From a virus (lineage: Duplodnaviria > Heunggongvirae > Uroviricota > Caudoviricetes), in IMG/VR virus record IMGVR_UViG_2880378312_000001: a stretch of 20,976 bases of DNA; one strand, written 5' to 3'. Position 1 is the stretch's first letter. The number at the start of each line of letters is the position of its first letter. Under the pieces are notes generated by a model. That model had not been told where the DNA came from, ran no database searches, and saw only the letters and a program-made list of their open reading frames with translations. Both the position numbers and the translations under genes were made by a program. Below are positions 1-5,500 of the stretch, piece after piece.

Positions 1-1314
1 ATGGAAAACAAATGTATTGAAAGTGAGCAAATCTTTTTTGCTAAGATGAACAGGTATAGTTTCAAACTGTCAGATAAGAAATGGCAACTGGATAAAGAAA
101 ACTGCGTATACCCTCATAAAGTTGTAGATAGAATGCCTACAAAAATGAAACTTAGCTACTTAAAAACATTGGCTTACTATGCGTCTGAATATAGTTCTTT
201 TTATATTCAAAGTATTAACAATCTATTTTATGAGTGGTTTGGTGCGATGACTATCGATACTATTGATGACAAAGCAATATATCAATTGAATGTTTATTTA
301 GGTTCAGAAAGAAACTACAAACTAAACTTAATTAAGGCTTTCATCATTAAATGGAAAAATCTCAATTACCCTGGGGTAGAAGCGACTGCCATTAGAATGC
401 TGGAGAAAATAAAAATCATTCCAAACCAAACAGGAGATGCAGTTAAAAGACGAGATCCAAATAAAGGACCTTTAACTGAAGCGGAATTCAATAACATCAT
501 TAACGCCGTTGGAAAATTTTATCATGAGAAGAAAATTCAATGCTTTTTGTATTGTTATATCCTTTTGCTGGCAATAACAGGAAGAAGGCCATTACAATTA
601 ATATCTCTAAAAGCTAAAGATCTCATTAAAAATGAGAGAGGGTGCTTTTTGAATGTACCAAAAGTAAAACAAAGAAAATGTTTCAGAAAAGAATTTAACA
701 TGGTTATGATAGAGCCGTTCTTATATGACAGCTTATCAATGCTAATTAATCAAAATCAGGCGTTTGTTGAAGATAAATTCAGTGTTGGGATTAGTAACTA
801 TAGAGGCGAATTACCAATCTTCATGAATTTAGATAAGATTACGGAAACAAAAAGGATTGAGGATTTTTTATATGATTTAACAACAGATTTTTTCCATATG
901 AAAAATTCAGTTATGTCAAAACTATTAAAACACTTTCCGTCAAAATTCGATGTTAGGTCAGAAAGGACTAACAGCTATATAGAACTTAATGCTAGAAGAT
1001 TCAGATATACGTTAGGAAGTCGACTGGCTAATGAAGGAGCCTCAATTGAGGTGATTGCTAAAGCGTTAGATCATAAATCAGTAAACTCTTCTATAATATA
1101 TATAAAAAATAATCCTGACAACGTTTATGACATCGATAAGAGACTAAGTGCGTTTTTTAACCCCTTATCTAATATACTTATGGGCATAGAGATTGAAGAA
1201 AACAAGAACTTTTTTATCAAGTTTGTTTCAGATGCATTTTTCTTATTGGAAGATACGAAAGAGGATTTGAAATGTTTAACGTGTAAAAAATTCAATCCCT
1301 GGAGAGCATTATGA
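1..1314 (+). CDS. Tyrosine-recombinase-fold protein A (Tn554 TnpA-like position); the window starts at its ATG so the true start may lie upstream
   Basis: Box I-like ITGRRPLQLISLKAKDL and Box II-like RRFRYTLGSRLANEGASIEVIAKALDHKSVNSSIIYI align gap-free to XerD [39 protein letters not shown] (from memory), with Arg, His and Tyr at catalytic positions. Stop overlaps next start (ATGA at 1311-1314). Strongly AT-rich. Confidence 0.6.
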   Translation: MENKCIESEQIFFAKMNRYSFKLSDKKWQLDKENCVYPHKVVDRMPTKMKLSYLKTLAYYASEYSSFYIQSINNLFYEWFGAMTIDTIDDKAIYQLNVYLGSERNYKLNLIKAFIIKWKNLNYPGVEATAIRMLEKIKIIPNQTGDAVKRRDPNKGPLTEAEFNNIINAVGKFYHEKKIQCFLYCYILLLAITGRRPLQLISLKAKDLIKNERGCFLNVPKVKQRKCFRKEFNMVMIEPFLYDSLSMLINQNQAFVEDKFSVGISNYRGELPIFMNLDKITETKRIEDFLYDLTTDFFHMKNSVMSKLLKHFPSKFDVRSERTNSYIELNARRFRYTLGSRLANEGASIEVIAKALDHKSVNSSIIYIKNNPDNVYDIDKRLSAFFNPLSNILMGIEIEENKNFFIKFVSDAFFLLEDTKEDLKCLTCKKFNPWRAL

Positions 1315-2956
1315 ACAATATATTTATTTTTGAACCAAGCAATAAAAACAACCCTCTCGATAATGTTATTAAGTTTATCGAGTTTTGTAAGAGTACTATT
1401 TCTAATAATAATTTAACAACTTCATGGGAAAGCAATAAATGGAAAGGTTTATATAGGTTTACTAAGTTTAACTCAAAAAACAACCTAAACAGCAAGGAGT
1501 GCTTAGATGATAGCTTTATTAATTTTGCTAAAGCATATATGTTGCATGTGCATTCATTCAATAAATCTAAGACGAAACACTCAACATTATCAATGTTGAA
1601 GATTGTCGAATTCGTTTTACTTAAAATCAATATGGAAGCTAATGTAAACTATTGCAACAATTCAATCTATGATGAATGCATAAGGATAGCCTCTGAAAAG
1701 TATTCTAAAGCACATGCATTTGCTATTGGGAAAGAACTTGAGAATTTGAGTTCATTTTTAAATGATAATAGGATGACTAACTCATTTTATTTATTTTGGG
1801 TAAATCCAATTAGGTATAGGATTACTCAGTCTTGGACTGGTTATGATTCTTCACTGGAAGGCCATTCTAGATTGCCTGATATCAAATCAGTTATTGCGAT
1901 TGCTGAGATTTTTTCAAAGCGGGATGAACAATTATCGTCAAGAGATATATTTACTACATCTGTGCTTGCTTTACTTATGTGTGCACCGAGTAGGATATCG
2001 GAAATTTTAGCTTTGCCAGCGGATTGTGAAATCACAGAATGTGATGGAAAGGGCATTCAAAGATACGGTTTAAGATTTTTTTCAGCAAAAGGGTATGAAG
2101 GCAATATAAAATGGATTCCAACTTTAATGATACCTGTAGCTAAAAAGGCTATTAGCAGATTAAAAGAATTATCAAGTCAAGCGAGGTTATTGGCTGCTGA
2201 AATTCAAAAGAATTACTCTAATTCAACGAAGGGAACCCTTAAAGAAAATATACCTCCTGATCTCTTTTGGTATGATAGAGAGAAGAAAATCAAATATTCT
2301 AATGCGCTTTGCTTGTTAACTGAAGGACAGTTAAATCAAAATAAAAAGGAAATGTCAGATAAATTATTCAGACCTACAACGAATTTTTTTAAAACTGATA
2401 TCATTGATTCTGATTATATAAAAGGGTATTTTAATGTTTTTAAAAGACATGGTTATATAAATGAAGATGGTAGCCCATATTTGCTAAGAACACATCAACT
2501 AAGGCATCTTCTCAACACATTTGCTCAAATAAATGGTATGGATGAAATGGTATGGATGAATTTAGTATTGCTCGCTGGTCTGGACGTAAGCTTATTTCTC
2601 AAAATGTTTCTTATGACCACAGATCGCATCTTCAAATGTCTAAAGCAATAAGAGAAAAAAAGTTATCAGTATGTGTTAATGAGCACAGAATAAAGGATAT
2701 TCCAGTAGTGGATCTTAATGAGTTTGACTCACTTAGTAGTGGTGCAGTACTTGTATCAAAACATGGCTACTGCAAGCACTCATATGCGTTTAAGCCGTGT
2801 GATAATTATCCAATTAAGAACTCTGGTTTAGATAACGAAACGATTTCAAATATCCACGATAAAATTTTAAAAAGAACACTGTATGATAAAAATGATGGGA
2901 ACATAAATGCTGATAAATGGTATGAATTCCATAAAAAAATAAAAAAAGGAGAATAA
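1311..2956 (+). pseudogene. Tyrosine-recombinase-fold protein B (Tn554 TnpB-like position), frameshifted by a 14-bp tandem duplication; repaired length about 543 aa
   Basis: ORFs 1311..2651 and 2552..2956 join into one frame if one copy of atggtatggatgaa (2533-2546 / 2547-2560) is removed. The repaired junction reads HQLRHLLNTFAQINGMDEFSIARWSGRKLISQNVSYDH, matching the HxLRH...G...Y..H catalytic spacing of tyrosine recombinases without gaps. Box I-like APSRISEILAL lies upstream. Confidence 0.6.
2533..2560 (+). repeat. Exact 14-bp tandem duplication (atggtatggatgaa x2) inside recombinase B
   Basis: Direct reading of the sequence; 14 is not a multiple of 3, so the frame shifts between Box II and the catalytic Tyr. 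Confidence 0.9.
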
Positions 2957-3866: not shown

Positions 3867-4261
3867 TGTTTGTATGATTTTCATTAGACTTACTTAATCT
3901 ATAGTCTAAATTTTAATATTAGATTCGTAAATCTATAATTCCATGAATCTAATTAATGCTTAAAAGCATCCTCTAAGATGCTTTTACTGTTACCATGCAT
4001 ACATACCCAGAACCTTTAACAAACGATAATAGAGGGGAGTTGTGTATAACAACTCCCTGACCTTACTAAGGTTAGCGATGTTATTCAGCATCATTCTGTC
4101 AAAGATTTAATTTCTTTGAAAAATACTAATTCTACCCCTTAAGTTAATAACTTCTGCTTGATCGTGTATTTTGGTAAGTTGGAGTACAATTTTTTGATTG
4201 GATCGTCAATAAGAAAAAGCTAGAATCCTTAGAAGGACATAGATTTTCATAGGGTTAAGAT

Positions 4262-5500
4262 ATGACGATTGCGAAGGATAGTTCGACTGATGAAATCATT
4301 CATGGAAATGATCTCCGTGGAATGGATGATTTTTACATTAAGACAACGAGTTTTGAATGCCCATACGAGCCTTGTAAAATTAAAGCCACACCTTGTAGTT
4401 TTACTATGAAACATGTTAATCAATCATATTTCAGATATGGCGATAAACATAAGGATGGATGTGGTATTCATGATCCAAGATATAAAAACAATCATACTTC
4501 AAATGACGAAAGAAAACATAATTCGCCACCTGCTCCGGTTATATCACTTTTAAAAATTGATGTGAAACCAAGAGGTGGTGTTAAAAATGCCAGAAATATT
4601 AAAAATGAAAATCACAAGGATGAAAAAAAAGGTAATGAACATCCTGTATCTTCATCAAGTATTAAGCCCGTCGTTGACTATTACATAAATAATAGCAATC
4701 ATAATGAACAGCTATCAATCCCTCCATATGGCACGCGATCTTATAAAGATACATTTCAACTTATTTTTTACAAAAACAACATACGTTATTACAAACCTGC
4801 TATTTATTATGGTGTAGCCCAGTCTAATATTCGTCTGCATGAAGATTCAGATAAACATTGTATTACTTTCCTCGCAAGGGATAAGAAAACCCAAAAACCA
4901 TTTACGCTTGAAATTGATGTTTCTGACTGGAATAAAAGTCAGAAGGATGTGTTTTGGAAGGAATATGAAAAGCAAAGGAAGGAAGCTGATAGGTATTATA
5001 AGGGGCTTAAAGATAAAAGGAATGCTAAAAAATACTTGACGGTTTTCTTTTTTGGGATGCCGGATGAAAATGATAAGTTTCTATTTAAGACAAACCACTT
5101 TAAATTAGTATATGTGGCTTTCTTGGGTAAATTTGAAAGCTCATATAATGATAGTAATTATTACATTGAAAATGATCTGTCTGTATCATCATTGAATGAA
5201 CAACCCATTTCATTATCTGATATAGACCATAAAAATCATGAATATAATATTGAAACTTCATTAGATTTTAGTTCTCCTTTGCCAGAGCCAGAGCCAGAGC
5301 CAGAGCCAGAGCCAGAGCCAGAGCCAGAGCCAGAGCCAGAGCCAGAGCCAGAGCCAGAGCCAGAGCCAGAGCCAGAGCCAGAGCCAGAGCCAGAGCCAGA
5401 GCCAATAAGATCCTCTTTAAAGGAAAATACTGAGACTGTAGAAATGAACAGTAAAGTTTGGGGGAGGCTGAAAAAGATAATCACTTTCTTTAAAAAGTGA
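4262..5500 (+). CDS. Hypothetical 412-aa protein with N-terminal Cys cluster and C-terminal (PE)20 repeat
   Basis: Uninterrupted ORF in the AT-rich block. Cys pattern [13 protein letters not shown]...C (possible zinc ribbon), Lys-rich central region, then L-(PE)20-PI. No recognised family. Confidence 0.5.
5282..5401 (+). repeat. Perfect hexanucleotide tandem repeat (CCAGAG)x20, encoding (Pro-Glu)20
   Basis: 120 bp of exact 6-bp units read directly; in frame within the 4262..5500 ORF. Reverse strand reads as (GS)n, which is an artefact. Confidence 0.95.

Follow-up and report, generated by a model that had tools for sequence, protein, structure and literature searches.

The islands known as GInts carry the operon ginABCD, made up of three recombinase-type genes and a small gene, all of which are needed for excision and integration (PMC5385486). 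In the GInts that have been studied experimentally integration is site-specific, cleavage is staggered by 6 nt, overlap sequences need not match and the element is excised as a circle. GinD is reported to be essential for GInt recombination and similar to TnpC of Tn554 (PMC5385486), and GInts have in common with Tn554 and the SEs (integrative elements whose circularization is strand-biased) an ordinary and a large recombinase accompanied by a small protein (PMC5385486, PMC10214605). They have been described as non-mobilizable, with the gin operon adjoining attL at their 5' end and with the 3' end of ssb as insertion site (Bardaji 2017, Sci Rep 7:46254), and have been reported from 7.5% of Escherichia replicons (Idola et al. 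2023). Here we describe an AT-rich block at the start of a 20,976-nt stretch of DNA (IMG/VR virus record IMGVR_UViG_2880378312_000001, in its full length termed the window below), whose source is the chromosome of E. coli O157:H7, from the island adjoining ssrA. The block is a ginABCD module of the GInt type, which has been listed before from O157 Sakai, and it very likely represents the decayed, GInt-type remnant of a mobilizable island, with the operon at its surviving "recombination end".

In the annotated record of the locus (L001, whose position 20001 is window position 1) a 401-aa tyrosine-type recombinase/integrase, which matches Pfam PF00589 with E = 2.4e-18, is encoded at L001 18794-19999, and its gene stops 2 bases ahead of the window. 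This ginA-like gene is followed within the window, always on the plus strand, by a ginB-like gene (1..1314) for a 437-aa tyrosine recombinase, a large ginC-like gene (1311..2956), which encodes 543 aa when intact and is a pseudogene here, and a ginD-like gene (2957..3355) for a 132-aa protein with a heptad-rich C-terminal half. The genes are coupled through an ATGA overlap of ginB and ginC at 1311-1314 and through a ginC stop codon ending at 2956 directly before the ginD start at 2957. This order of a recombinase, a second recombinase, a large recombinase-fold protein and a 132-aa protein is the ginABCD layout. The initial annotation, made from the window, had correctly recognized the AT-rich composition, the coupled genes, the 437-aa recombinase and the small 132-aa protein; its recombinase pair becomes a trio because the third recombinase gene sits just beyond the left edge, so that the window cuts the operon, and it is this edge that led to the misreading.

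The 437-aa protein scores 43.9 bits against PF00589 (cut-off 27.1), matches the integrase family phrog_1 and attains 320 bits against NCBIfam NF041502, which is under the cut-off of 350. Sequence searches against solved structures with gene 2, with gene 3 and with a 25-sequence profile of gene 3 returned nothing significant, and the recombinase fold of the large protein was seen by the structure model alone, with matches to IntI4 (13.2), XerA, XerH, Cre and lambda Int. Both large proteins of the window have the tyrosine-recombinase fold, as had been supposed: the 437-aa protein by its PF00589 match, and the large one by the structure model and its conserved residues. The 132-aa protein matches no Pfam family and is recognized as GinD-like through a listed orthologue and through its position, as ginD always follows ginC in 85 loci.

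The assignment to GInts is partly a matter of published record. Additional file 10 of Idola et al. 2023 gives ECs_3510 (1632 nt) and ECs_3509 (399 nt) of NC_002695.2 as the orthologues of ginC and ginD, and the same list, compiled by PSI-BLAST, contains WP_001052051.1 as a ginD orthologue. This is the RefSeq accession of the protein at 2957-3355 in a genome that matches the stretch at 100.0%, bar the repeat number at 5281-5404, and the suggestion of an uncharacterized element has to be withdrawn accordingly. A scan of one genome per species yielded 79 loci. Profiles derived from the gin copies of E. coli, Pectobacterium and Serratia show the order ginA-B-C-D in all of a set of 89 loci, as far as the contigs reach, and the loci split into two classes. 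Class 1 has 40 members, nearly all from Enterobacterales, and includes the O157 copy. Class 2 is distributed over diverse Gamma- and Betaproteobacteria and some metagenome bins, consists of the four genes only and has a GinC of ~680 aa; these full-length relatives show 30-34% identity, with E ~1e-100. The 12 class-2 operons that were examined begin ~230 nt past the stop codon of ssb, whose product ends in ...DDDIPF. Class-2 operons (GinC ~34% identical) lie at this ssb 3' end, where GInts are described to insert, in a wide range of genera (L034-L050), among them Escherichia ruysiae, Proteus and Yersinia. They were also observed (H68-H82) on 135 plasmids from E. coli, Klebsiella and Salmonella, and a conjugative nature is predicted for 84 of these.

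Within the window an ordinary recombinase, a large recombinase and a ~130-aa protein stand in the order of a Tn554-type transposon with its two recombinases and TnpC, which is how the initial annotation had understood the layout, and the published resemblance of GinD to TnpC is the part of that understanding which survives (PMC5385486, PMC10214605). However, Tn554 has exactly two recombinases and tnpC, and the locus has three recombinase-fold genes, a trio that is universal in the 89 loci; the named relatives are all Proteobacteria, and the published survey files the genes under GInt. As there are three recombinase genes and a small gene, the family is very probably that of the GInt ginABCD operon, and a Tn554-type transposon is scarcely conceivable. 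An SE, with the gene set intA-tfp-intB-srap, would account for the gene number, the gene sizes and the gammaproteobacterial hosts, as well as for a large third protein with a full catalytic set, like IntB, next to a less complete second protein. Yet the NCBIfam gamma-mobile-trio model GmtY, which we take to represent the SE-type trio, reaches 21-22 bits only against a cut-off of 340, and terminal inverted repeats of 13-19 bp (motifs C/C') as found in SEs are absent from L001 18300-26100, where the right end has possibly been lost. Any terminal inverted or direct repeats sought around the trio in the same interval proved to be just chance-level AT-rich matches. GInt and SE proteins form separate clusters in the survey that lists the O157 genes under GInt (Idola 2023), and an SE is very improbable as the source of this operon.

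The catalytic residues point in the same direction as the gene order. Orthologues from the 89 loci were aligned and the alignment positions converted into protein coordinates. In the GinA-like proteins R216, H330, R333, W364 and Y374 are invariant (82 sequences). The GinB-like proteins retain R195/196, K223, H358 and Y367 in 85 of 85 sequences and R335 in 84 of 85, and vary at position 332, that of the usual first His (His-II). In the GinC-like proteins R228, K260/K267, H395, R398, W418 and Y430 are invariant or almost so (85 sequences). The Box I Arg and Box II/Tyr motifs noticed earlier in both the 437-aa and the large protein are, in other words, conserved across the family. GinC has been reported to be without the first Arg (Bardaji 2017, PMC5385486) and without the RHRY motif and the catalytic tyrosine (Idola et al. 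2023); our alignments suggest that GinC has a complete catalytic set, which is absent from the GInt literature as described.

The block itself is foreign to its host. Over positions 1-5600 it is 100.0% identical at full coverage in 25 listed genomes of the E. coli O157:H7 type, the sole differences among them being the repeat number of an array at 5281-5404, and it is present in 392 of 5426 complete E. coli genomes (7.2%), in one copy each, chromosomal in all. Its G+C content lies at 0.30-0.34 across 1-5000 and climbs past ~5500, amounting to 33.2% for 1-5928 vs 45.6% for the remaining window. Since the block is found in those 392 of 5426 E. coli genomes and 95-98% identical DNA in Enterobacter, Pantoea and Xenorhabdus, genome comparison indicates horizontal acquisition, in agreement with the initial annotation. 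Upstream of the ginA-like gene L001 has an AlpA-family gene and a DUF6387 gene, and then ypjA. On the other side ~14 kb, containing an IS30 remnant and a prophage remnant, separate the block from ssrA, the tmRNA gene (19917-20279, minus strand). The block was considered as the integrase module of prophage Sp17 and ruled out as such by its position and gene content; a lambdoid module for ssrA integration has a single integrase with xis beside the ssrA attachment site, an arrangement that the block lacks. It had rightly been kept apart from the integrase of the lambdoid remnant at ssrA. An Rfam scan of the whole element gave no meaningful match, and a promoter and terminator scan gave hits no more numerous than in shuffled sequence.

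The O157 copy shows decay at two levels. In this strain two tandem copies of the 14-bp unit AATGGTATGGATGA (2532..2559, plus strand) split the ginC frame into open reading frames (ORFs) 1311-2651 (446 aa) and 2552-2956 (134 aa). Deleting one copy of AATGGTATGGATGA restores an ORF of 543 aa (1632 nt), which is the annotated length in Sakai and EC4115, so that the ~543-aa protein of the initial annotation exists only in alleles without the duplication. In a 70-base search, in which an allele without the duplication gives two overlapping pieces spanning 56 bases and one with it a single 70-base piece, most of 326 genomes proved to be without the duplication; its carriers are a minority, roughly 30-60 of the 326, a bracket from a spread listing and not an exact count. 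The frameshift falls at about codon 408, between H395/R398 and W418/Y430, and through it the predicted catalytic W418 and Y430 of GinC are lost.

The second level concerns the island. Window positions 3300-5928, which include the gene following ginD (termed gene E below), a 412-aa gene and a BamE-like lipoprotein gene, share 95-98% identity with the islands of Enterobacter genomosp. O (L014) and of Pantoea (L017). A Xenorhabdus locus (L013) matches the window at 97.9% as far as 5300, which is the end of that locus. Homology to the intact islands ceases at 5928, rather than near 5500 where the boundary had formerly been drawn. This point lies against an IS30 remnant and ~7 codons inside the 5' end of the small BamE-like lipoprotein gene (5576..5971, minus strand; RefSeq "BamE domain-containing protein"; phrog_3135, E = 3e-24), the last island gene kept, homologues of which adjoin the relaxase cluster in Pectobacterium and Enterobacter islands. 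Past the corresponding point L014 has a 222-aa gene followed by a 434-aa ORF matched by the relaxase profile; where intact relatives have the 222-aa gene and a PF03432 relaxase, O157 has a transposase remnant of IS30 (5914..6669, minus strand), which lacks its C-terminus, lies outside the element and, from annotation and comparison, marks the truncation of the island. Beyond it a prophage remnant with nin genes, Q, lysis genes, IS66, tail fibre fragments, nleG-like genes, espW and espM2 extends to ssrA. To judge from these relatives, O157 is missing the half of the island that carried relaxase and integrase. Because ginC is frameshifted before its Trp and Tyr codons and the relaxase/integrase half is deleted, the copy in this strain is predicted to be an immobile remnant, and the intact integrative element that had been envisaged gives way to this picture.

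What the island once looked like can be gathered from its class-1 relatives. Gene E is present in all 40 class-1 loci, DUF6387 with alpA lies upstream in 34, and a PF03432 relaxase is encoded downstream on the opposite strand in 33; a P4-type integrase gene immediately precedes DUF6387 in 12 loci and is found at the far end in 5. In E. coli EC11 the order is yejO, DUF6387-alpA-ginABCD-E, relaxase, ABC-three-component genes, integrase and tRNA-Pro, and the same plan recurs in GABEEC10 between dinD and yicC, in O169:H41 between ypjA and ssrA with the integrase at ssrA, and in Rb-50 at tRNA-Leu. In EC11 a 21-bp direct repeat, TTTGGTCGGCACGAGAGGATT, has one copy upstream of DUF6387 and the other in the tRNA-Pro 3' end, and because this repeat bounds it the gin module lies inside a 19-kb classical tRNA-type island. 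No tRNA genes were detected in the Pectobacterium and Serratia loci, and in O157 a direct repeat of the ssrA 3' end beside DUF6387 was sought without any shared exact word of at least 10 bases. Both ends of the EC11 island (L010 10588-10690 and 29584-29758) were further observed to carry repeated (T)GTATGCCTAA(A/G) and TGTATCAGTGT motifs, which are probably arm-type binding sites of the P4-type integrase of the island. The gene table of ICEKp258.2 has an integrase, a MOBQ relaxase, and AlpA and DUF6387 as the last genes, with no gin operon, and a recombination directionality factor of the AlpA type is counted among the conserved excision and integration genes of related islands (PMC10763509). 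Relaxases and AlpA go unmentioned in both GInt papers (Bardaji 2017; Idola 2023), and the constant placement of gin in islands that bear an integrase and a relaxase is undescribed in the GInt literature.

Gene E (3453..3866, plus strand, with a longer start form at 3396) encodes a 137-aa, all-helical protein with a basic tail and no known family. It lies directly or shortly past ginD in 40 of 40 class-1 loci and is absent from class-2 loci; of its 343 homologues the named ones all belong to Enterobacterales, all are annotated as "hypothetical" and none has a Pfam domain. Its AlphaFold model is helical but has a low confidence, with a pLDDT of 63.4 that did not suffice for a fold search. Gene E is a constant companion of the enterobacterial gin subclass rather than variable cargo. 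It had been counted with the 412-aa gene as one of two unknown cargo genes, a description that stands insofar as neither of the ORFs at 3453-3866 and 4262-5500 matches a Pfam family. Ahead of gene E the intergenic region 3356..3452 (plus strand) contains a TTGACA-type promoter-like box and the inverted repeat TTGTCAGGACGACAA, and it is kept in five E. coli variants whose gin genes share just 53-71% identity, a conservation that would be consistent with some function.

A comparison of the islands shows that they exchange modules. The GinABCD proteins of O157 and Rb-50 are 95-97% identical, with 52% identity for DUF6387 and 74% for AlpA; between O157 and O169:H41 the situation is reversed, with 99-100% for DUF6387 and AlpA and 53-71% for the Gin proteins. 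In eight comparisons with EC11 a segment of 90-98% DNA identity opens at one and the same base (L010 12004), 44 nt past the alpA stop codon (TTTGTAAAGTTT...), between flanks that are 75-83% identical or unrelated, and in five of the eight, as well as between EC11 and O157, it ends at the gene E stop codon, giving a 5.3-kb unit. From alpA into this unit the G+C content drops from 42.5% to 26% in the leader and 31-34% in gin and gene E. As a separate observation, E. coli O121:H19 (L004 9507-15650) has a far more divergent gin-like operon at the same position (GinA 38% and GinD 46% identical), with ginC broken by IS600; DNA identity there is 89% in the DUF6387-alpA flank and 96% just past ginD, in gene E and the start of the 412-aa gene.

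The sharp start of the shared segment, its length of at least 5.3 kb and the fall in G+C content would all be expected if the leader, ginABCD and gene E formed a self-contained GInt nested in the island, inserted site-specifically ~44 nt past alpA and bounded by TGTAAAG-type end repeats. The leader start also matches the attL position of the ssb-inserted GInts, TGTAAAG being present three times in both, and islands of the ICEKp258.2 type have DUF6387 and AlpA without gin. However, no island was found in which alpA is joined straight to the sequence past gene E, as an empty site would be, and the association of DUF6387-alpA, gene E and relaxase holds even at 35% gin identity, which looks like co-evolution and not like repeated insertion. 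The putative end repeats at the leader start and the gene E stop codon are suggestive at most, being short, AT-rich and chosen after the fact; gene E is able to go with the island backbone rather than with gin; and a hypervariable spacer located 100 nt inside the segment is left unexplained. On balance we regard a nested GInt as rather unlikely.

This spacer belongs to a candidate crossover site at L001 18619-18647, which precedes ginA by ~145 nt and is not part of the window. When the ginA leaders of 34 class-1 loci were aligned, they showed three copies of a TGTAAAG-like motif, with matching relative places in the class-2 leaders. Between the first and second copy lies GGGTATGGATAC-N6-CTAGCCGTACC, in which inverted arms of 11-12 nt surround a 6-nt spacer. 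The 20 loci with essentially invariant arms have 19 different spacers, and in pairs whose flanks are at least 93% identical the mismatch rate is 62.5% in the spacer vs 1.0% in the flanks. The arms co-vary between subgroups (GGTGTACTTAA/GTAACA/TTAAGTACACC and GGTGATCTTAA/TAGTAA/TTAAGATCACC), the spacers being again locus-specific. Further, the sequences on either side of the site (100 nt on the left, 150 nt on the right) assort independently, with left/right identities of 99%/77% for L001-L003, 85%/100% for L010-L017 and 96%/75% for L010-L019. Two Pectobacterium loci have rearrangements with an end at this place. In L031 (7240-7345) a 1.26-kb deletion has removed DUF6387, alpA, the leader and the left arm, and similarity to L029 starts exactly at the boundary of spacer and right arm. 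In L028 (3788-7340) a 3.4-kb insertion with an IS5-like fragment has one end exactly at the spacer, the insert lying between the leader with a copy of the left arm and a second such copy joined to spacer, right arm and ginA.

Approximately half of the excised pGInt0 molecules carry the 6-nt attB overhang in attI (Bardaji 2017). Given that the spacer pattern is what repeated replacement of the attI overhang would leave, we infer that the Gin proteins exchange strands at the arm-spacer-arm site, which may be an attI-like site of joined ends. A site with a hypervariable spacer is absent from the GInt literature as described. It can be read in three ways: as the joined ends of a whole-island GInt, as an internal site of the nested 5.3-kb GInt, or as a resolution site. 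Right past the candidate core, at L001 18650-18680 (~1330 bases upstream of window position 1), we also noted a perfect 20-bp palindrome, TTTATTTGACGTCAAATAAA, which is replaced by TTTCTTTCACGTGAAAGAAA in the other gin allele group; because the changes fall on both arms, the palindrome probably either binds a dimeric protein or forms a hairpin.

The last of the three ways supposes that the island has put the gin operon and its single palindromic site to use as a resolution system akin to Cre-loxP, which would act on multimers or cointegrates of the circle after excision or mobilization instead of serving integration. In its favour, each island has one arm-spacer-arm site beside the recombinase genes: a search of complete islands for a second core-arm copy as partner site gave chance-level hits with 2 mismatches only. 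It is also in keeping with the lack of split sites in 364 E. coli genomes and with the presence of a separate integrase and relaxase in the island. On the other hand three recombinase-fold proteins and a helper are more than resolution needs, it provides no reason for a spacer that changes ~60 times faster than its flanks, and the homologous operons of ssb-inserted GInts mediate integration and excision. A resolution system is thus quite improbable, and we return to the decayed GInt-type remnant of a mobilizable island, with strand exchange by Gin proteins at the site, as the preferred interpretation.

Several observations weigh against this interpretation. Membership in the GInt family is indirect with respect to the reference GinABCD from P. 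stutzeri DSM 4166, being based on the published orthologue list and the ssb-inserted relatives. The position of the operon is internal to the island, since DUF6387 and alpA lie upstream in the same island where a GInt operon would delimit the 5' end next to attL; convincing imperfect direct repeats of 10-17 nt (attL and attR) and a partner site were not found, the right end of the O157 copy being deleted, and the tripartite anatomy that defines GInts is not seen here. The full catalytic set of GinC contradicts the accounts of Bardaji and of Idola, so that either theirs or our alignments mis-place residues. At the candidate site, both arms occur together in 364 of the 364 E. coli genomes that have it, the spacer is constant across ~300 O157/O55 genomes, and among the 364 genomes there is no sign of ongoing activity and no integration via the site. 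Moreover, the site can form a hairpin, and in canonical GInts the corresponding place is occupied by one of terminator-like type, though in the class-2 leaders its loop is nearly constant among close relatives; the fold of the leader RNA, at z = -1.85, is not compelling.

With these points in mind, we propose that a mobilizable genomic island once lay between ypjA and ssrA, and that the block is its surviving recombination end. The core is a GInt-type operon for three tyrosine-recombinase-fold proteins and a small TnpC-like helper, which in the enterobacterial subclass is housed in a larger island with its own P4-type integrase by a tRNA-type site, a PF03432 relaxase and variable cargo. The Gin proteins would exchange strands at the single arm-spacer-arm site ~145 nt upstream of ginA. 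In O157:H7 the relaxase/integrase half has been deleted at 5928 against the IS30 remnant, and in this strain ginC is additionally frameshifted, leaving a copy that is predicted to be immobile. A more general proposal, which we offer as a tentative possibility, is that the GInt operons of Enterobacterales constitute a second, mismatch-tolerant recombination system within tRNA-integrating mobilizable islands, with an attI-like site and with GinA, GinB and GinC all competent. Were this the case, the purpose of such recombination may be sought in an excised island integrating at alternative targets, swapping halves or capturing DNA in an integron-like fashion, and the 3.4-kb insertion of L028 and the independent assortment of left and right flanks would be examples.

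The cargo between gene E and the relaxase, and past the relaxase, varies among the class-1 islands and includes UvrD-helicase and AAA_15 genes, a NACHT gene, a KAP NTPase, Hxs genes and TrlF. In O157 it is represented by the 412-aa gene (4262..5500, plus strand), which contains a Pro-Glu repeat. Residues 151-284 of its product match PADLOC PD-Lambda-4_B weakly (E = 1.7e-7), making it a weak candidate for a defence protein, and no partner "A" gene of PD-Lambda-4 is evident in the 400-nt gap upstream of 4262. The Pro-Glu repeat is encoded by a (GCCAGA)x20.7 array at 5281-5404; because the length of the ORF differs between strains (the F8092B counterpart has 434 aa, that of Enterobacter L014 382 aa), the array is a second length-variable 6-bp repeat. 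Its equation with VNTR-9 was wrong, as the VNTR-9 primers flank the other array, at 6746-6804. Among sister islands, Pectobacterium L007 (14263-19314) has an FRG-domain gene with UvrD-helicase and AAA_15/AAA_21 genes, which in our judgement resembles Gabija, and E. coli O169:H41 (L009 17799-26732) has HxsABCD, a DUF6119 gene and a gene for a nucleotide-binding protein; the cargo of both looks like anti-phage defence. The part of the window beyond the block (5914-20976) is a decayed lambdoid prophage of the Sp17 type, in which we observed an HNH gene, ninG, a phosphatase gene, Q, a holin gene, an interrupted lysozyme gene, tnpA and tnpB of IS66, tail-fibre fragments and genes for type III effectors, namely espW (16338-17396, minus strand), an nleG-like gene (17475-18125, minus strand) and espM2 (18308-18898, plus strand), to the right of which lie dinI, ssrA and smpB.

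For O157:H7 itself these findings are of little importance, and the two 6-bp repeat arrays are more useful for strain typing than the recombinases. Their interest lies in the whole enterobacterial gin subclass of 40 loci, which resides in integrase- and relaxase-bearing islands, often with defence-like cargo, unlike the GInts described so far. The complete and invariant Arg-Lys-His-Arg-Trp-Tyr set of GinC bears on the question of which of the three proteins cuts DNA, and the invariant arms with their near-random 6-nt spacer offer an exact substrate for testing three-recombinase recombination and the tolerance of non-identical overlaps, a question shared with Tn554 and the SEs.

Among known systems, RIT elements resemble the locus in having three adjacent tyrosine-recombinase genes. 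RIT elements are flanked by long inverted repeats; they differ in being without a fourth small gene, which is universal here, and flanking inverted repeats were not found around the gin operons. Tn554 of Staphylococcus (tnpA, tnpB, tnpC), compared by description, has a similar ordinary and large recombinase with a small protein of ~125-130 aa, and likewise inserts site-specifically with a 6-7-bp junction sequence carried over (PMC10214605), but has two recombinases instead of three, belongs to Firmicutes and transports resistance cargo. The SEs (Idola et al. 2023, Mob DNA 14:7) come closer: they too have four core genes of similar sizes in Gammaproteobacteria, for an ordinary, a large and a less canonical recombinase and a small coiled-coil protein, and carry a 6-bp spacer between sites. 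However, there is no detectable sequence relationship, and although the less canonical protein is second in both, that of gin still has Arg, Arg, His and Tyr.

The backbone around gin in EC11 and GABEEC10, set side by side by description, has the same layout as ICEKp258.2 and the EARL (ROD21-like) islands. ROD21-type islands use Asn-tRNA genes, in contrast to the islands studied here, which lie at tRNA-Pro, tRNA-Leu or ssrA or beside yicC. The GInts as described differ from the O157-type operon in several respects: the latter is internal to an island bounded by tRNA repeats and not at its 5' end; the class-1 island has a fourth, P4-type integrase and a relaxase; the operon follows DUF6387-alpA (34/40) and precedes the conserved 137-aa gene (40/40); its GinC has all catalytic residues; and the copy in O157 has been truncated, with a frameshift in addition in this strain. 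Nevertheless, the GInts are the described elements that share with it a tightly packed operon of four genes in the same order, with three tyrosine-recombinase-type genes and a small gene; class 1 and the ssb-inserted relatives have in common a TGTAAAG-rich leader upstream of ginA; and the variable 6-nt spacer fits the overlap replacement published for attI.

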